From: a bacterium | GTDB lineage: Bacteria; Patescibacteriota; Patescibacteriia; UBA9934; GWF2-40-263 | Reading direction: 5' to 3' | NCBI GenBank assembly: GCA_020057555.1 | Contig: JAGVFR010000001.1 | Coordinates: forward strand, 3,062-67,061 | Length of the DNA stretch: 64,000 nucleotides | In this document: positions 1 to 46,615 of the stretch, one piece after another | Layout of the letters: each line of letters starts with the position of its first letter | Numbering within the stretch: position 1 is the stretch's first letter | Position numbers and translations under genes: made by a program | Notes under the pieces: generated by a model | The model's database searches: none | Told to the model about the DNA's origin: nothing | Seen by the model: the letters and a program-made list of their open reading frames with translations, nothing else

Positions 1-299
1 GTTATTCTATCAATGACACAATCGTTGTTCTTGATCGTACTAGAGAGAACCTTTTGCATCGCACAGGAGCTTCTTTGTCAGAAACAGTTGAAGCGAGCAT
101 TCAACAAACGCTTCTTCGTTCGCTTAACACAAGTTTAACAACTATTCTCGCTTTGCTAGCAATTTTTCTTTTTGGTGGTGATAGCACGCGTCCTTTCGCG
201 CTTGCGTTGATAATTGGAATCGCAGTTGGAACATATTCATCTATATTTGTGGCAAGTCCATTGTTGATTGTTTGGGAGAAAATGAAGAAAAGAAGCTGA
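1..299 (+). CDS. secF: Protein-export membrane protein SecF, C-terminal fragment; the gene begins upstream of the window
   Basis: Frame 3 is open from the window edge. Translation ...NDTIVVLDRTRENL... followed by TM segments (ILALLAIFLFGG, IIGIAVGTYSSIFVASPLLIV) is typical of the SecF C-terminus. Confidence 0.65.
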   Translation, partial: YSINDTIVVLDRTRENLLHRTGASLSETVEASIQQTLLRSLNTSLTTILALLAIFLFGGDSTRPFALALIIGIAVGTYSSIFVASPLLIVWEKMKKRS

Positions 300-370
300 A
301 GAAGTTGGAGAAGCTGAAGAAGTTGTAGAATAACAGGCGACATTCGCTTGTTCTTTTGATATAATAAAGT

Positions 371-1891
371 TTGAAGGATATGCTATCTCTTTTTGCGATT
401 CCGATCGTTCAACAAACAGTTCAAACTTCTACGGTTGCTTTTTCGTTCTTCGAGCGTCCGATTGACGTTATTCTTTTTGATTTTTTAATTTGGTTTGGAT
501 GGATTCCAATTGCGATTACTCTTGGTTGGGGGTTTGTAATGATGTGGCAAAATTATCGTCAAGGTGAATGGTCAAAGACTTTGAAATTTGTTTTGTTAGC
601 GATTGATGTTCCAACAATGACAGAACAAACGCCAAAAGCTTTGGAAAATTTATTTTCGAGTTTATATGGAGCAAAATCAAGTCTAACATGGAAAGAATTA
701 TGGATTGTTGGAAAATACCACCCAAGTTTTTCTTTTGAGATTATTTCGGCTGAAGGATACATACAATTTCTTGTTCGAACACAAACTCGTTTTCGCGACA
801 TGATCGAAGCAGGTATTTACGCGCATTATCCAGACGCTGAAATTTCAGAGGTTGAAGATTATGCTACGAAATTTCCAAATGTTTTTCCTGACAAAGAATA
901 TGAAATGTGGGGAGGGGAATTTAAATTGGCAAAACCTTCAATGTATCCAATCCGGACATATATTGAGTTTGAAGATAAAGTAACTGGTGAAATTAAAGAT
1001 CCTCTTGGACACACACTTGAGCAACTTGCAAAAATGAGGCCAGGAGAACATTTTTGGTTTCAGATGATCATTCAACCATCAACGAATGATTGGATTAAAG
1101 AAGGAATGACCCGATTGAATAAACTTTACGGAAAAACAGAGCAAGCTAAAAAGAGCGCGATTGTTTCCTCAATTGAATCTGTTGTTTCATGGCCGATTGG
1201 TGTGATTGCAAATGCGACAGGGACTGATCTTGGCGGTTTGTTTGGTATTACAGAAGAAGCAAAAAAAGAGCCTTATGTTTTACTGCCTTTGCAAGAAACA
1301 AAAGAGGCAGATGCTTTGTATAAAAAACTTTCAAAAGTCGGAATGGGAACAAAAATTCGGATTCTTTATGTTGCAAAAAAGAATGCGTTTGTAAAAGTCG
1401 AGAGAACTGGCATGGTTAAAGGAATTTTGAATCAATACTCCGATCTTGCGTTAAACAAGTTTGAACTTTTTATTCCTCAAGTTCCTAAAGATGATTATTT
1501 TTGGATGCGATGGGTTTATACAAAAAAACAACATACGCTCATGAAAGCGTACCAAAATCGTAGCTGGGGGATTGGAGCTGATCCATCTTTTTTGAACGTT
1601 GAGGAAATAGCTTCGCTTTGGCACTTCCCAACATTTGGATTTAAGGCGCCTTTGGTTAAGAAGGCTGAAGCTCGACGCGCAGAGCCTCCTGTTGGTCTTC
1701 CAATTACGTTTGAAGAAGATACTTTGGCAATTGGAAGAGAAGAAAAGGAAGAAAGAGAAGAAAAGGAAGAAAGAGAAGAAAAGGAAGAAAGAGAAGAAAT
1801 ATCTGATACGATCGGAACTGCTGAAGTTCCTATTGTTAAACCGCCAACAACTAAAAATGAGGATTTTGTTCCACCGAATTTACCTGTTTAG
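371..1891 (+). CDS. Membrane-anchored hypothetical protein with two N-terminal TM helices and a C-terminal acidic (EEKEER)n repeat
   Basis: 506-aa ORF. The N-terminus has two hydrophobic helices (FDFLIWFGWIPIAITLGWGFVMMW). The C-terminus has EEKEEREEKEEREEKEEREE followed by a Pro-rich tail. I recognise no family. The start is uncertain (TTG at 371 or ATG at 380). An extended -10 (TGaTATAAT, 357-365) lies just upstream. Confidence 0.6.
   Translation: MKDMLSLFAIPIVQQTVQTSTVAFSFFERPIDVILFDFLIWFGWIPIAITLGWGFVMMWQNYRQGEWSKTLKFVLLAIDVPTMTEQTPKALENLFSSLYGAKSSLTWKELWIVGKYHPSFSFEIISAEGYIQFLVRTQTRFRDMIEAGIYAHYPDAEISEVEDYATKFPNVFPDKEYEMWGGEFKLAKPSMYPIRTYIEFEDKVTGEIKDPLGHTLEQLAKMRPGEHFWFQMIIQPSTNDWIKEGMTRLNKLYGKTEQAKKSAIVSSIESVVSWPIGVIANATGTDLGGLFGITEEAKKEPYVLLPLQETKEADALYKKLSKVGMGTKIRILYVAKKNAFVKVERTGMVKGILNQYSDLALNKFELFIPQVPKDDYFWMRWVYTKKQHTLMKAYQNRSWGIGADPSFLNVEEIASLWHFPTFGFKAPLVKKAEARRAEPPVGLPITFEEDTLAIGREEKEEREEKEEREEKEEREEISDTIGTAEVPIVKPPTTKNEDFVPPNLPV
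1735..1799 (+). repeat. Coding tandem repeat: 18-nt unit agaaaaggaagaaagaga in about 3.5 copies, encoding (EEKEER)n
   Basis: Read directly from the sequence at 1735-1799. Perfect head-to-tail copies, in frame inside the 371..1891 ORF. Confidence 0.9.
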
Positions 1892-1938
1892 TTTTATCCT
1901 CACACACTCACCCCTTTTCTCCTCGCCCCTTTTTCTAT

Positions 1939-3927
1939 ATGTCCCACAACCACGATCACGAAAACGAAGTCACATACTTTGCTAAAACAAACTTTAGAAA
2001 CTCAATGACAAAGTTTGGCATCAAGACTGACGATAGGCGTCGTCATGTTTATGTGATTGGAAAAACAGGCATGGGAAAAACAACTTTGCTTGAAAATTTT
2101 ATTTTATCTGATATTTACGCAGGACATGGTTGTTGTTATGTTGATCCGCACGGAGACACGGCAGAAAAATTGATTGATTACATTCCAAGCTGGAGAATAA
2201 ACGATGTAATTTATTTCAACCCATCAGATGTTGATTATCCGATTGGTTTTAACATTTTGGAAGCAGTAAGTGAACGACACAAACATTTGGTCGCTAGCGG
2301 AATGATGGGTGTTTTCAAAAAGATTTGGGAAAACATGTGGTCTTCACGAATGGAATATATTTTGAATAACACTATCCTGGCTCTTCTTGATAATCCTGGA
2401 CAAACCTTGCTTGGAATCAACCGTATGCTTTCAGAAGAGGAATTCAGAAATCGGATTGTCGGAAATGTCACAGATCCAGTTGTAAAACAATTTTGGTTGA
2501 AAGAATTTGCTTCATATAACGACAAATATGCCCAAGAAGCTGTTGCGCCTATCCAAAATAAAATTGGTCAATTTTTGTCAGCGTCTGTAATTCGAAACAT
2601 TGTCGCTCAAGTTAAATCAACGATTCATATTCGCGAGATAATGGATTCTGAAAAGATATTTATTATCAACCTTTCAAAGGGTCGAATCGGTGAAGACAAT
2701 TCTCGTTTGCTTGGTGGACTTTTAATTACCAAATTGCAATTAGCCGCAATGGAACGTGTTGATGTCCCTGAAAATGATCGAAAAGATTTTTATCTGTACG
2801 TTGATGAGTTTCAAAATTTTGCTGTTGAGTCGTTTGCTGGAATTCTTTCCGAAGCTCGCAAGTACCGTTTGTGTTTGACAATGGCGCATCAATACATTGC
2901 TCAACTTACAGACGAGGTTCGAGAAGCTGTATTTGGAAACGTAGGAACGATCATCTCATATCGTGTTGGTTCTCCGGATGGTTTGTATATGGAAAAAGAA
3001 TTTGCGCCTCGTTTCATGCCAGAAGATATTATCAATCTTCCAAAATACAACGTTTATTTGAAATTGTTGATTGATGGTGTTTCAAGTCAACCGTTTTCCG
3101 CGATTACTTTGCCGCCGATTTCTAAGCGCACAGATTCTGCCGATCGTGTCATCAAAGTATCGCGTGAACGTTTTGCAAATCCACGAAAAGAAATTGAAGA
3201 AAAGATTTTGCAATGGAGTGGAATGGAAAACGCGGACATGGACACACTGCTTAAAGAAGCAGAAGAAAAAAAGAAAATGGCAAAGACGGCGCGAAAGCCT
3301 CGTTTTGAATATAATTGCACACGGTGTAACAAACAAATTATCTTGGCGGTTGAACTCGATCGTTCTCGACCGATCTATTGCGAGGAGTGTATAGAAATTG
3401 TTAGAGAGGAACGAAAACATGGAAAATCAAAACGGCCAGAAGTTCATGTAAAACCAGAACTTCCACCACGGCCATCTGAAGGTACAGTTGTTGAGCGTGT
3501 GGCAACCGAAACACCGATGAGTTTGGATCGGTTGAATGTGAAAAGTGAGAAGACCCAGACGACTGAAAGGACCAAGATGACCGAGAGGGAAAACGATTTA
3601 TCGCCTGAGCCTGTCGAAGGCAGTAATTTAACTCCTGCTCAAGCTAAAGATGATTGGTTGTCTAATGAGATTAAAAAACCAAATGCACATGTTGCAAGTA
3701 TTGCACCTCAACAAACAACAACAGCCGCGGGTTTTATCCAGCGTCAAAATACACAAGGCGAAAATAATAATAAACGAAAACGAAATAGAAAAAAGAAGCA
3801 AAACGTTCCACTTCCCAATGGGGACAACAGGGGATCGTCGGTAGCTCCGCAAATTGTTTCTCCGTCATCTATTCCACAAAAAAATACAGGGACACTCAAA
3901 CCAGGACAAACAATAAAGTTTGATTGA
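1939..3927 (+). CDS. TraD/TraG/VirD4-family P-loop ATPase (type IV secretion coupling-protein-like, FtsK/HerA superfamily) with a C-terminal Cys4 zinc ribbon and a low-complexity tail
   Basis: Walker A is VIGKTGMGKTT, followed by YVDPHGD (cf. VDPKGD of TrwB/VirD4). Walker B is LYVDEFQNF. The distal motif LTMAHQYIAQL...FGN matches the TraG-D_C type. The zinc ribbon is CTRCNK...CEEC. The tail is rich in S/T/Q/N/K. Confidence 0.75.
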   Translation: MSHNHDHENEVTYFAKTNFRNSMTKFGIKTDDRRRHVYVIGKTGMGKTTLLENFILSDIYAGHGCCYVDPHGDTAEKLIDYIPSWRINDVIYFNPSDVDYPIGFNILEAVSERHKHLVASGMMGVFKKIWENMWSSRMEYILNNTILALLDNPGQTLLGINRMLSEEEFRNRIVGNVTDPVVKQFWLKEFASYNDKYAQEAVAPIQNKIGQFLSASVIRNIVAQVKSTIHIREIMDSEKIFIINLSKGRIGEDNSRLLGGLLITKLQLAAMERVDVPENDRKDFYLYVDEFQNFAVESFAGILSEARKYRLCLTMAHQYIAQLTDEVREAVFGNVGTIISYRVGSPDGLYMEKEFAPRFMPEDIINLPKYNVYLKLLIDGVSSQPFSAITLPPISKRTDSADRVIKVSRERFANPRKEIEEKILQWSGMENADMDTLLKEAEEKKKMAKTARKPRFEYNCTRCNKQIILAVELDRSRPIYCEECIEIVREERKHGKSKRPEVHVKPELPPRPSEGTVVERVATETPMSLDRLNVKSEKTQTTERTKMTERENDLSPEPVEGSNLTPAQAKDDWLSNEIKKPNAHVASIAPQQTTTAAGFIQRQNTQGENNNKRKRNRKKKQNVPLPNGDNRGSSVAPQIVSPSSIPQKNTGTLKPGQTIKFD

Positions 3928-3936
3928 CAAAAAAAG

Positions 3937-4016
3937 AAGTAGTAGGTAGTAAGTAGCAGGTAGTAGGTAAATACGTTGAAAGAAGATACTTACTACTTAG
4001 TACTTGCTACTTTTTT
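3937..4016 (+). terminator. Imperfect AGTAG-rich hairpin followed by TTTTTT; a putative intrinsic terminator abutting the next start codon
   Basis: The 5' arm agtaggtagtaagtagcaggtagtaggta is partly complementary to tacttactacttagtacttgctact. The T6 tract at 4011-4016 is immediately followed by ATG at 4017. Confidence 0.45.
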
Positions 4017-5330
4017 ATGCACTCCTACGAACTTCGCGATCCAATTCATCATCGCATTTCATTTAACGAATTTGAACGGACGATCATTGATCATCCGTTT
4101 TTTCAGCGTTTGCGATTCATTAGCCAACTTGGCATGATGCATTCCTACGTATATCCAGGCGGAGTTCACGATAGGTTTATACATTCGATTGGGACAATGC
4201 ATGTTGCAGGACGATTATTCGATCATTTATTTTTTGATTCTTCAGAGCTTCAATCAAATTTGTCCGCAGAAGAAATGAAAGAACTTCGTTCTCGTGTTCG
4301 CGTTGCCGGACTTTTGCATGATATTGGTCATGGACCATTTTCTCATGCGTCTGAATTTGTTTTTCCATTACTCGAAACTTTTCCTCTCGATTGGTCTTGG
4401 TGGAAACAAAAACAAAATCGTAAAGCAATTCACGAAGATTACAGCATACTTTTAATACAAACACTTGTTCACGAAAATATTTTGGAAAAATCGTTTGCTC
4501 AAGATGTTGCGTCAATTATTCACAAAGATATTTTGCCGTCAGAATATTTAGACAAACTTTCAAATCGTATTCCAGGACTCGGTCGAGTTCTAAAGGGTCT
4601 TATTTCTGGCGAAGCTGATGCTGATCGAATGGATTATCTTTTGCGTGATAGTTATTTTTGTGGAGTCGCGTATGGAAATTATGATCTTGATTGGTTGATC
4701 TCATCGCTCGGTGTTGCACAATACGAAAGACAATTGATAATGACTCTTTCTGAAAATGGAGTTCGCGCGTATGAAGACATGCTGCTTGCTCGTTATCACA
4801 TGATCGATCAAGTTTATTATCACAAAACAAAAGCAGGGTTTGCGCATTATTTGGAAGAAGCGATTCAAACCAAAGAAATTCCACTTGCGATTCCTACTGA
4901 TCCGTATTTGTACACACAGTTGCGCGACGGAGCATTAATTGAACAGATTTTTGAGTCAGCAAAAAATCCGAAAAATTATTGGTCAGAACATATCGTAAAA
5001 CGAATTCCAGCAAAACGGATTTTACGTTTACAAAAAAATAAACCGGAAGATCATGATATTCTTTTAAAGCTGATTAATTTTTGTGAGAAAAATAATATCA
5101 GATATTTTATGCATTCAGTTTGGAACGAGCTTTCTCATTTTGGAGAAGGAGCGTCTGAAAGCGCGACAATGATTTATGTTGAGAAGCGTTTGGTGAACGG
5201 TGTTGAGTATATTCCAATTTTCAAGTATTCAGATTTACTTCAAAAGTATAACGAAAAGTTGGATTTCACAGATTTTTTTGTGTTTCGTGAGGACGCGGAA
5301 AAGTTTGAGCAATTAGCTGCTAGCTTTTAG
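4017..5330 (+). CDS. HD-domain phosphohydrolase (dNTP triphosphohydrolase / dGTPase-like)
   Basis: N-terminal DPIHH...FQRLR...QLG...YPGG.HDRFIHSIG is the pattern of dGTPase-like HD proteins. The HD motif is LLHDIGHGPFSH, followed by ADRMDYLLRDSYF. Confidence 0.75.
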   Translation: MHSYELRDPIHHRISFNEFERTIIDHPFFQRLRFISQLGMMHSYVYPGGVHDRFIHSIGTMHVAGRLFDHLFFDSSELQSNLSAEEMKELRSRVRVAGLLHDIGHGPFSHASEFVFPLLETFPLDWSWWKQKQNRKAIHEDYSILLIQTLVHENILEKSFAQDVASIIHKDILPSEYLDKLSNRIPGLGRVLKGLISGEADADRMDYLLRDSYFCGVAYGNYDLDWLISSLGVAQYERQLIMTLSENGVRAYEDMLLARYHMIDQVYYHKTKAGFAHYLEEAIQTKEIPLAIPTDPYLYTQLRDGALIEQIFESAKNPKNYWSEHIVKRIPAKRILRLQKNKPEDHDILLKLINFCEKNNIRYFMHSVWNELSHFGEGASESATMIYVEKRLVNGVEYIPIFKYSDLLQKYNEKLDFTDFFVFREDAEKFEQLAASF

Positions 5331-5377
5331 TTTCGATTATGTGTTTTCTAACGGCTAATAGCTAAAGGCTAACGGCT

Positions 5378-6496
5378 ATGACTAATTCATCAAAAGTCCT
5401 ACTCGGAATGTCTGGAGGGGTTGACTCGTCAGTGTCAGCGGCTTTGTTGTTGGAACAAGGATATGAAGTAATCGGAGCGTTCATGAAAAATTGGTCTGAA
5501 AACGAATGCAATGGACCAGAGTTCAAAGAGTGCGGTTGGAAAACAGAACGACGCGATGCGGCGCGTGTTGCGGCGAAACTTGGGATTCCATTTTTAACTC
5601 TGGATTTTGAAAAAGAATATCGTCGAGATGTTATCGAATATCTATTTCGCGAATCAGAAGCCGGTCGAACTCCAAATCCTGATGTTATGTGCAATAAGTT
5701 TATAAAGTTTGATCGTTTTGTACGCGAAGCAGATCGTCTTGGATGCGAGTTTATTGCGACCGGACATTATGCGAGGATTGCTCGTTCTAGATCCTTCGAC
5801 TCGTCCAGCCAAAAGGCCGGACTCGCTCAGGATGACACAAAGGATTGGAGTATTCTTGCAGGGAAAGATTCCAACAAAGATCAAACTTATTTCCTATGGG
5901 CGATAGATAAGAAAATTTTACCTCGAATTATATTTCCAATCGGTGAAATGAAAAAACCAGAAGTCCGCGCAAAAGCTCGCGAACTTGGACTTGATGTTGC
6001 TGAAAAAAAAGACAGTGTTGGAATTTGTTTTGTTGGTGAAGTTGAAATGCGAGAATTTTTGAAAACAAGAATCAAAGAAGATCCAGGGAAAATAGTAACC
6101 ACAGATGGAAAAATTGTTGGTGAACATTCTGGAATATATTTTTTCACAATTGGTCAGCGTCATGGTTTGAATATTGGTGGTGGAGCTCCATATTACGTTG
6201 TTGAAAAGCGCGAAAAAACAAAAGAGCTTATTGTCACAAGTAATTATCATCCATCTTTATACAAAGACGAATTATGTGTTGAGCAAATCAATTTGCTTGT
6301 TGATTCGCTTCCAAAAAACATCAAATGCAAATCTCGTATTCGTTATCGTCAACCACTTCAATCTTGCGCAGTAACTTTTCTTCCAAATAAAAAAGTTGTG
6401 GTTAAATTTGATAAATCACAGCGTGCTGTAACACCAGGACAGTCAATTGTTTTTTACGATGCTGAAGTGATGTTGGGAGGTGGAGTGATTGTGTAA
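5378..6496 (+). CDS. mnmA: tRNA-specific 2-thiouridylase MnmA
   Basis: PP-loop LLGMSGGVDSSVSAALL. The MnmA-typical central and C-terminal regions are present (ATGHYARI..., DQTYFLW). Confidence 0.9.
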   Translation: MTNSSKVLLGMSGGVDSSVSAALLLEQGYEVIGAFMKNWSENECNGPEFKECGWKTERRDAARVAAKLGIPFLTLDFEKEYRRDVIEYLFRESEAGRTPNPDVMCNKFIKFDRFVREADRLGCEFIATGHYARIARSRSFDSSSQKAGLAQDDTKDWSILAGKDSNKDQTYFLWAIDKKILPRIIFPIGEMKKPEVRAKARELGLDVAEKKDSVGICFVGEVEMREFLKTRIKEDPGKIVTTDGKIVGEHSGIYFFTIGQRHGLNIGGGAPYYVVEKREKTKELIVTSNYHPSLYKDELCVEQINLLVDSLPKNIKCKSRIRYRQPLQSCAVTFLPNKKVVVKFDKSQRAVTPGQSIVFYDAEVMLGGGVIV

Positions 6497-45286: not shown

Positions 45287-46477
45287 TTACGAGAGAGTCA
45301 AGGTTCTCTTGGTGAAAGGAAACTTGATAGATATCGGAAGTTTGAATGGATTGCCCAGTAAGAAGCCTGAATACTTCGTGTCAGGTGGACAGAGATTGAT
45401 CCTGACGTCGTTCGCTCCGATCTTTGAATCGCCATTGAACCGTCTGGCAAGGCCGACTGCGACTGTTGCAAACGTTTCCATCTGACGAAGAAGTTCGAGG
45501 TCGAAATCGCGCGCATCAACACTGATGTTCTTGAATGGATTAACGAGCTCTACGGGAATTCTGAATCGCCGCTCACAAGCCCTGATAAAGGCGCTAGATT
45601 GCGACACACCTCCGCTTAAGTAAATCCGTGCGATGTCAGCTTTCATGGTAACTGCCGCGAAGTAGTCAAGAGATCGTTTTATCTCTGTGACGAATGTTTC
45701 CGATACGTGTTCCTCGAGCTTTCGCACTTCACAAAGCACAGAAGACGAGGAAATCGAATCGTCTTCTGATGTCTGGTAGTGCACTGCTTCTGCCCACGAA
45801 ACATTGAGCTGTTTCATTATCTCGGCGGTCAGAAACGTTCCGCCCATCGAGATCTCACGCGTAAAGGTTGTGATCCCGTTTGAGATCACATTGATACTGA
45901 TGCTTGAGGCACCAACATTGAAAAGAACAATGATCTCGTTTGAAGGACAGCTATAGTTCAGGTCGAACGAGTTCTGAACAGCGAACGTGTCAATGTCCAC
46001 GACTTCTGGGGAAAGCCCGGCTTCTCGAACCACATAAATATAGTCATTGACAACATCCTTTTTCGCGGCCACAAGCAAAACATCCATCTGTCCCTGATAA
46101 GCTTTGGGATTGAGGATTTGAACATCGATGTTGACTTTCTTTATGTCGAACGGGATGTACTGCTCTGCTTCCCAAATTATTGCCTCTCGCAGTTCTTCAG
46201 GAGTCATCTCTGGAATCGAGATCTTCTTGACGATAACTGAATGCCCTGACATCGAAATCGCGCATCGTGAACGTCCGCACTTATTAACTTTCACTAATTC
46301 GCGAAGTGTGTTGACAATCGCGTCGGGGTTCAACAGTGCCCCGTCAACAATGGTTTCCGGAGGCAACATGCAACTATCGAATTTGACGAGTTTGAGCCCA
46401 GTTCCAGTCTCTGCGAGCTGACACAGCTTGATTGAAGAAGATCCGATGTCCAGTCCAAGTAGTAATTTTCGTGACAT
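45287..46477 (-). CDS. pilM: Type IV pilus assembly ATPase-fold protein PilM (actin-like); orphan and G+C-rich
   Basis: The start is MSRKLLLGLDIGSSSIKL with AAAGGAG upstream. The actin/HSP70-fold motifs and PilM-like segments (EAEQYIPFDIKKVNIDVQIL, MDVLLVAAKKD) are present. No pilN/O/P/Q genes are adjacent. GC content is visibly higher than the flanks. Confidence 0.7.
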   Translation of the reverse strand: MSRKLLLGLDIGSSSIKLCQLAETGTGLKLVKFDSCMLPPETIVDGALLNPDAIVNTLRELVKVNKCGRSRCAISMSGHSVIVKKISIPEMTPEELREAIIWEAEQYIPFDIKKVNIDVQILNPKAYQGQMDVLLVAAKKDVVNDYIYVVREAGLSPEVVDIDTFAVQNSFDLNYSCPSNEIIVLFNVGASSISINVISNGITTFTREISMGGTFLTAEIMKQLNVSWAEAVHYQTSEDDSISSSSVLCEVRKLEEHVSETFVTEIKRSLDYFAAVTMKADIARIYLSGGVSQSSAFIRACERRFRIPVELVNPFKNISVDARDFDLELLRQMETFATVAVGLARRFNGDSKIGANDVRINLCPPDTKYSGFLLGNPFKLPISIKFPFTKRTLTLS

Positions 46478-46615
46478 TTCCGACTCCTTTTTGCGTCTGC
46501 CAGGAAACGCAGAGTTATTTAAACACATCTGAAGTATTTGGTCTACTTAAAAGTGTTCAAATCGTCCAGCAAAAATTGGTGTTTACGAGGAAATAAGGTA
46601 AACTTGCGCAGTTGT

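Follow-up and report, generated by a model that had tools for sequence, protein, structure and literature searches.

A DUF8128 membrane protein and the ATPase encoded next to it in Patescibacteria very probably make up a single, split type IV coupling protein

What is an ATPase from the coupling-protein family of type IV secretion systems (T4SS) doing among housekeeping genes, and does the membrane protein encoded just upstream belong to it? The question is raised by a 64-kb stretch of chromosomal DNA (the window) from an ultra-small relative of Candidatus Uhrbacteria, in which three consecutive open reading frames (ORFs) encode a membrane protein of family DUF8128 (ORF1), the ATPase (ORF2) and an HD-domain protein (ORF3, the HD gene). 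The best homologues of ORF1 and ORF2, at 86–90% identity, come from Uhrbacteria metagenome-assembled genomes. An earlier interpretation made from the letters alone, here called the sequence-only reading, had grouped the three genes as a possible DNA-translocation or defence module, with unrelated neighbours as the alternative. Its description holds for the three ORFs, the (EEKEER)n repeat, the Walker A, DPHG and Walker B motifs, the TraG-D_C motif, the zinc ribbon and the S/T/Q/N-rich tail, all of which are present. The analyses presented here lead to a different grouping: ORF1 and ORF2 are very probably a single type IV coupling protein, of the actinobacterial or monoderm type, split at a domain boundary into two co-transcribed genes.

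We examined the conservation of this arrangement in a sample built from one genome per species with two peptide patterns, comprising 80 loci with 36–89% identity to ORF1, which were analysed by tblastn and ORF calling. The loci are nearly all of the Uhrbacteria type, and the spread of the split over the Patescibacteria classes lies outside the sample. In all of the 77 species loci whose contig runs on, the gene directly downstream of DUF8128 is that of the ATPase; the median distance between the two is 6 nucleotides, and in ten loci they overlap by 4 nucleotides. Two more remote members of the family (L092 and L093) have the identical order. This establishes the two-gene unit, and the arrangement is what one coupling protein split at a domain boundary would look like. 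The ATPase family could have proved to be scattered through genomes with no conserved neighbours; in fact its neighbours are conserved. The gene secF lies directly upstream of the DUF8128 gene in 70 of the 80 species loci, and is also found upstream in both distant members, with a sigma-factor-like gene intervening in L093. Conservation of the ATPase core exceeds that of MnmA in all 48 loci compared and that of Era in 13 of 16, so that the motor is under stronger purifying selection than either protein. The pair is vertically inherited in Uhrbacteria-type Patescibacteria and has a fixed core-genome position between secDF and mnmA. Recent carriage of DUF8128 by a mobile element was considered and rejected, since plasmids searched by tblastn with ORF1 gave no match and a scan of viral contigs with the alignment of DUF8128 homologues (A1) gave no relatives. 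We note that many of the species-representative genomes with the gene pair (among them L008, L009, L012, L017, L018 and OZ246408.1) bear the title "uncultured Gammaproteobacteria bacterium"; on these Patescibacterial records the title looks like mislabelling in the source.

The relationship between the two proteins is seen most directly in Actinobacteria. A tblastn search of plasmids with ORF2 found, at 31% identity (E 1e-53), the coupling protein WP_331738717.1 (812 amino acids) of a plasmid of Embleya sp. NBC_00896, with the match confined to the C-terminal half, which is the ATPase part. This protein is encoded in a T4SS cluster together with PrgI/VirB3, VirB4, a Replic_Relax protein and NlpC/P60. 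When the DUF8128 alignment was compared with the same protein using hhalign, ORF1 residues 94–452 aligned to Embleya residues 94–399, just before the ATPase domain, in a match that takes in the motif LWHFP...AP...A.R...PP. The DUF8128 domain of ORF1 ends in the motif LWHFP...APLVKKAEARRAEPPVGLP, which hhalign places, in the actinobacterial fusions, at the junction that immediately precedes the ATPase domain. A profile–profile comparison of A1 with an alignment of actinobacterial coupling-protein N-domains (A3) gave Prob 96.2 and E 2.7e-9 over 329 columns, and again the alignment stops at the pre-ATPase junction. In a search with the N-terminal 410 residues of the Embleya protein, about 70 of 100 relatives carry PF26449 (DUF8128), many of them fused to PF10412, PF01935 or PF12696. 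These relatives come from Streptomyces, Frankia, Kitasatospora, Nonomuraea and Acidimicrobiia, and the fused architecture of PF26449 with PF10412 occurs in Streptomyces, Frankia, Nonomuraea and Acidimicrobiia. Four actinobacterial loci have, in whole or in part, the order T4SS_pilin, TrbL_3 (VirB6), PrgI (VirB3), VirB4, DUF8128 coupling protein, Replic_Relax (a putative relaxase), NlpC/P60. One hydrophobic helix region precedes the DUF8128 domain in the Embleya protein, and likewise in a standalone DUF8128 protein of Streptomyces yunnanensis.

The homology to the Embleya protein, the fusion of the two halves elsewhere, the profile match and the presence of a single membrane helix, on ORF1 only, together identify the pair as, in all likelihood, a split coupling protein. 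Judged from these alignments, the whole unit is homologous to coupling proteins inside bona fide T4SS clusters, and its halves align to them in the same order. ORF1 supplies the membrane helix and the DUF8128 domain, and ORF2 supplies the P-loop motor, the zinc ribbon and a long tail. The suggestion in the sequence-only reading that the membrane protein is a true partner of the ATPase is thus borne out, both by the constant adjacency and by the actinobacterial fusions.

Two further actinobacterial loci are worth recording. In a Logan assembly of S. yunnanensis (L090:9001-11576) the standalone DUF8128 ORF (460 amino acids) is followed by a 384-residue TraG-D_C ORF that starts without Walker A. 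This locus was not counted as an independent split, because the downstream ORF lacks Walker A and looks like a frameshifted coupling-protein gene. In Nonomuraea rubra (L089:7149-9004) it is VirB4 that is apparently split, into a 217-residue TraC_F_IV-like ORF and a 405-residue P-loop_TraG ORF; the DUF8128 coupling protein is encoded directly downstream of them.

The local copy of Pfam holds no PF26449 model, and the family of ORF1 was set via the annotation of its homologues: PF26449 is the precomputed annotation of 119 of the 120 listed ORF1 homologues, and also of the relatives that were looked up. ORF1 is accordingly assigned to PF26449, a family of 2,640 clusters at 50% identity (E up to 1e-3). 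Local searches of Pfam, NCBIfam and PADLOC with ORF1, and a sequence profile search of the PDB with A1, gave no match. The start codon is likely to be ATG 380 rather than the listed TTG 371, as it has GAAGGA just upstream and homologues start MLPLFAIP. The sequence-only reading had given ORF1 two transmembrane segments; both hydropathy and AlphaFold indicate one. Residues D32, G43, W44, P46 and G54 in the region of this helix are invariant in A1, and R/K residues follow directly after it, which by the positive-inside rule suggests an N-out, C-in topology. AlphaFold predicts one long helix at residues 31–70, an α/β domain and a disordered tail, with a predicted local distance difference test (pLDDT) score of 69.6 overall and 80–90 in the core. 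The linker after the domain (columns 500–700 of A1) is without conservation. It contains the EEKEER repeat, at which a relative with 92% identity has a non-repetitive acidic stretch; as far as this alignment can tell, the repeat is an expansion private to this genome. Conservation returns at the extreme C-terminus, where P501, L504 and P505 are invariant in A1 and N503 nearly so, and roughly 70 of 75 termini read from the species loci end in x-P-x-[ND]-L-P-[VILMT].

ORF2 matches the Pfam models TrwB_AAD_bind (PF10412; E 1.1e-11, 44.7 bits, curated cut-off 20.5) and TraG-D_C (PF12696; E 3e-5, 24.4 bits, curated cut-off 22). These matches, both above the curated cut-offs, confirm the family to which the sequence-only reading had assigned it. 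The DPHGD motif (residues 69–73) is invariant in 21 homologues, which make up the ATPase alignment (A2). In a Foldseek search with a low-confidence structural model of ORF2, the top 17 matches are all TrwB, DotL or Cag-beta (prob 0.90–1.00, E ~1e-3 to 4e-2), and VirB4 comes next at E 0.16. The identification of ORF2 as a T4SS-coupling-protein-like ATPase is thus supported. A hydropathy scan of ORF2 found no hydrophobic segment and no membrane helix: the N-terminal membrane anchor that is usual in coupling proteins is not on this protein, and is found instead on the separate DUF8128 protein upstream.

Beyond the motor, the precomputed families for the ribbon on ATPase homologues are PF23477/PF09723. 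The species-locus ATPases have one ribbon in 57 cases, two in 11 and none in 2; where there is a second CxxC-x17-CxxC ribbon (11 of 70 species, loci L006-L085), it sits in the tail. From about residue 495 onwards the sequence of ORF2 is variable and predicted to be disordered, up to a C-terminal peptide in which F661 is invariant in A2, and G651, G656 and Q657 are nearly invariant. Over the species loci this extreme C-terminus falls into three classes, GQ[ST]IxF[DE] and, in sister clades, [DE][IV]FPW or GERISFx. The closest plasmid relative of the ATPase core is a 395-residue orphan with 40.5% identity (E 9e-90; L086:6986-8173) on the Sulfitobacter mediterraneus plasmid NZ_CP081110.1; it has no annotated membrane helix, its neighbours are a DUF3768 gene on one side and transposases on the other, and the surroundings are free of T4SS genes.

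If ORF1 and ORF2 do act as one coupling protein, ORF1 would anchor a hexamer of ORF2 at the cytoplasmic face of the membrane, and the motor would spend ATP to pass on its substrate (either DNA or protein) to a channel in the membrane. That channel would most probably be the chromosomal Patescibacterial T4SS, which has no relaxase and would be encoded at another site in the genome. Some canonical coupling proteins have C-terminal extensions for partner docking, and the tail of the F-plasmid TraD binds TraM. Docking of a substrate or partner may likewise fall to the zinc ribbon, the basic tail and both conserved C-terminal peptides, which would be comparable to the TraD tail.

The third gene does not share the constancy of the pair. 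Its product matches the solved structures 2HEK (E 6e-37, residues 5–330), EF1143 (2O6I, E 9e-28) and SAMHD1 (E 2e-22, residues 6–272), and we predict it to be a deoxynucleoside triphosphate (dNTP) triphosphohydrolase-like enzyme of the SAMHD1/EF1143 class. Against models of dGTPases it scores 18.6–25.5 bits, where the cut-offs are 152–439, and the alignment is limited to the region of the N-terminal HD motif. Of the 77 loci, just 30 have the HD gene near the pair, at distances of 6–3027 nucleotides and with bacA, an alpha/beta hydrolase gene or others inserted; in many loci it is absent from the region. It is also missing in L001-L003, and in L004 two genes separate it from the pair. Because its presence and its distance vary in this way, the three-gene module proposed in the sequence-only reading is not real, and the HD gene is an independent nucleotide-metabolism neighbour. 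A hairpin, the arms of which are the heptamer repeats (GTAGTAG)n at 3939–3969 and (TACTTAC)n at 3987–4012 (Tandem Repeats Finder, TRF), lies between ORF2 and the HD gene. Its predicted stability agrees with the earlier remark that the HD gene may have its own transcript, and it is likely to be a bidirectional terminator closing the two-gene unit. The coordinates of all of these features are collected in Table 1.

Table 1. Features of the locus, in window coordinates (A1, alignment of DUF8128 homologues; A2, alignment of 21 ATPase homologues).
Feature	Position	Strand	Basis
3′ end of secF, conserved upstream neighbour (gene leaves the window at its left edge)	1..299	+	SecD_SecF_C E 2.8e-22; frame open from base 3
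Terminator-like hairpin (332-352) overlapping promoter-like site (337-365, GCGACA-17-TATAAT, TG extension)	332..365	+	Consensus scan, pattern matches only
ORF1, DUF8128 (PF26449) protein, very probable N-terminal half of a split coupling protein	371..1891	+	506 aa; homologue annotation, hhalign
Single predicted transmembrane helix, ORF1 residues ~30-58	458..544	+	Kyte-Doolittle; AlphaFold
Conserved α/β DUF8128 domain, residues ~73-445	587..1705	+	A1; pLDDT 80-90 over most
18-nt coding tandem repeat (EEKEER)n, in variable disordered linker	1735..1799	+	TRF: 3.6 copies, 100% matches
Conserved C-terminal peptide VPPNLPV-COOH	1868..1888	+	A1
ORF2, soluble VirD4/TrwB-type ATPase, very probable C-terminal half of a split coupling protein	1939..3927	+	662 aa; PF10412, PF12696
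Walker A GKTGMGKT, residues 41-48 (G41-T48)	2059..2082	+	Invariant in A2
Walker B FYLYVDE, residues 284-290	2788..2808	+	F284, Y285, Y287, V288, D289, E290 invariant in A2
CxxC-x17-CxxC zinc ribbon, C460, C463, C481, C484	3316..3390	+	Cysteines invariant in 21 homologues
Disordered tail of variable sequence (S/T/Q/N/P-rich), with basic KRKRNRKKK patch	3391..3888	+	A2; pLDDT <50, residues 495-648
Conserved C-terminal peptide ...GTLKPGQTIKFD-COOH	3889..3924	+	A2
A7...T6 hairpin of heptamer repeats	3933..4016	.	dG -31.9 kcal/mol, z -5.3; 0/200 shuffles fold as well
HD-domain SAMHD1/EF1143-class dNTP-triphosphohydrolase-like gene, neighbour	4017..5330	+	Pfam HD, HD_assoc_2

Several observations weigh against the pair being a coupling protein in the service of a T4SS. 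The 27 window ORFs taken into the Pfam scan include neither a T4SS gene nor one for a relaxase, so that the earlier statement that the window holds no other T4SS genes stands for the scanned set and not for the window as a whole. In a survey of 3,035 Patescibacteria genomes, homologues of coupling proteins occur in more genomes than VirB4 does (2,918 as against 2,417), which fits a T4SS-independent job, and in Ca. Southlakia epibionticum the t4cp homologue is not essential, while the T4SS genes are (PMC12102498). The AlphaFold model of ORF2, made from a shallow alignment, is poor (pLDDT 48); it places helices, at low confidence, across residues 112–236, between Walker A and Walker B, where the TrwB fold has an inserted all-alpha domain. 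The survey and essentiality data in particular, with the absence of T4SS genes from the scanned set, can be read as signs of a motor that is derived from a coupling protein, as we propose, and differs in its present-day function, having been exapted to work independently of any T4SS. The core-genome position and a degree of conservation above that of MnmA or Era, unusual for a conjugation accessory, point the same way, and nucleic acids are plausible ligands of the zinc ribbon and the basic tail. Such a motor could possibly be a membrane-anchored DNA pump, used for acquisition of DNA or nucleotides, for DNA release, or for chromosome handling in reduced cells, and the authors of the survey themselves state that exaptation of coupling-protein homologues cannot be ruled out (PMC12102498). 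We nevertheless regard present-day independence as a tentative proposal, the less probable outcome: no direct evidence points to any other channel or substrate, a T4SS is encoded in about 80% of the surveyed Patescibacteria, and ordinary systems often encode their coupling protein away from virB4 (PMC12102498). A bolder version, in which the pair is a near-universal Patescibacterial membrane motor, a conjugation coupling protein domesticated into a T4SS-independent core housekeeping machine, we consider doubtful. If it were true, the polymer pumped by the motor could be DNA or a different one, moved while the cell divides or while it scavenges nutrients from its host, and the ribbon and the two C-terminal peptides would be new docking sites.

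The sequence-only reading had also considered a defence function, in which a HerA- or mad8-like ATPase, a membrane partner and a dNTPase effector would form an anti-phage module. The best single hidden Markov model match of the ATPase core is indeed to PADLOC mad8, the ATPase of the MADS defence system (E 3e-17, residues 33–373), and the HD protein has weak dGTPase and Cas3-HD matches. DUF8128 has no PADLOC match, and none of the other MADS components was found among ORF1–ORF3, so that mad8 is the sole MADS match in the three proteins. The mad8 protein is probably one more coupling-protein relative that lacks a membrane helix, with the match reflecting a shared class of ATPase fold. Moreover, the genomic setting is of core, housekeeping type: in 77 species the pair keeps its place between secDF and mnmA rather than lying in a variable island, its scanned neighbours are housekeeping genes, and no relatives of DUF8128 were found on viral contigs or plasmids. 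With the HD gene missing or displaced in most loci, and its product far under the dGTPase cut-offs, a defence role is extremely unlikely. A link to protein export, in which the order secD, secF, DUF8128, ATPase reflects a pathway shared with SecDF, rests on the position of secF in the species loci and in the two distant members. A terminator-like hairpin and a promoter-like site separate secF from ORF1, and the sigma-factor-like gene intervenes in L093; the fused actinobacterial homologues lie in T4SS clusters and not beside sec genes, and synteny within one lineage can be purely historical. This link therefore seems to us very improbable.

Some features of the surrounding DNA are noted here for completeness. 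The ORFs covered by the Pfam scan are of housekeeping type, for example MurJ, AlaRS, PriA, ClpB, GluRS, PBP2, a UvrD/PD-(D/E)XK helicase-nuclease and ATP synthase; two had no Pfam match. The only gene of pilus or secretion type among them is that for PilM (type IV pilus assembly), at 45287–46528 on the minus strand. Of the 11 rows of tandem repeats in the 64 kb, 6 fall within the first 5.4 kb. One is an 18-nucleotide repeat, AGAAGCTGAAGAAGTTGG, at 290–330 (2.2 copies, 95% matches), which begins in the final codons of secF and runs beyond its stop; a longer K/E-rich tail may once have stood here, of which this repeat is what is left. Another is the heptamer CTAACGG (4.4 copies, 5348–5378), which occupies the spacer between the HD gene and mnmA and stops at the mnmA ATG.

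Part of this picture is already known. The ATPase is annotated as a T4SS DNA-binding-domain protein, and such orphans were counted in the 2025 survey, in which VirD4-type homologues occur in 2,918 of 3,035 Patescibacteria genomes, with 148 of 5,713 near virB4, and VirB4 occurs in 2,417 (80%), usually near dnaA and usually without a relaxase (PMC12102498). The essential T4SS cluster of Southlakia was described as having no recognisable coupling protein (Wang et al. 2023, PMC10633639). Our literature search found no papers mentioning DUF8128 or PF26449. What appears to be undescribed is that the upstream gene is the missing N-terminal half and has actinobacterial coupling proteins as its relatives; the combination of split, zinc ribbon and terminal peptides in a core-genome setting likewise appears to be undescribed. 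DUF8128 thereby gains an identity, as the N-domain that lies next to the membrane in one class of monoderm coupling proteins, and the "orphan" coupling-protein ATPase becomes a two-gene unit, at least in the Uhrbacteria-type Patescibacteria examined. These are host-dependent bacteria, and the T4SS is essential in the one lineage tested by transposon sequencing. A coupling protein whose conservation exceeds that of Era or MnmA, and for which no relaxase has come to light, offers a handle on what such cells move across their membrane. A false lead has also been removed, in that the HD dNTPase, and with it the idea of defence, falls outside the module.

It remains to compare the pair with known systems. 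ORF2 almost certainly belongs among the orphan t4cp homologues that Quinonero-Coronel et al. reported (2025, PMC12102498), which are likewise VirD4-type, encoded away from virB4 and near-universal in the phylum; the DUF8128 partner upstream and the split architecture are not described there. The seven best Foldseek matches of the DUF8128 model in the PDB are TrwK/VirB4 chains (E 1.5e-3 to 7e-3, prob 0.92–0.99), with a TM-score of only ~0.3, and hhalign of DUF8128 against four actinobacterial VirB4 proteins gave nothing outside the P-loop; the apparent likeness of the modelled domain to the N-terminal domain of VirB4 is thus unconfirmed. With the canonical coupling proteins TrwB (of R388), VirD4, TraD, DotL and Cag-beta, the pair shares the P-loop motor matched by PF10412 and PF12696, and this group provides the top fold matches. 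The canonical proteins differ in having N-terminal membrane helices of their own and no DUF8128 domain, and in being encoded with relaxases and T4SS genes; the sequence similarity of ORF2 to TrwB in the PDB is limited to the Walker A region (E 9e-4). The closest counterparts are the fused actinobacterial coupling proteins, such as those of Embleya and Nonomuraea rubra (P0291), which consist of a DUF8128 α/β domain followed by a VirD4-type P-loop ATPase with TraG-D_C. In the Embleya protein there is one membrane helix ahead of these domains, as in the pair, and homology is detectable for each of the halves. In Actinobacteria the protein is usually a single polypeptide, encoded in a T4SS cluster with VirB3, VirB4, VirB6, pilin, Replic_Relax and a cell-wall hydrolase, whereas the Patescibacterial form is encoded by two genes in a housekeeping neighbourhood; both of its halves have acquired long disordered tails that close with a conserved peptide, and its ATPase carries a zinc ribbon.

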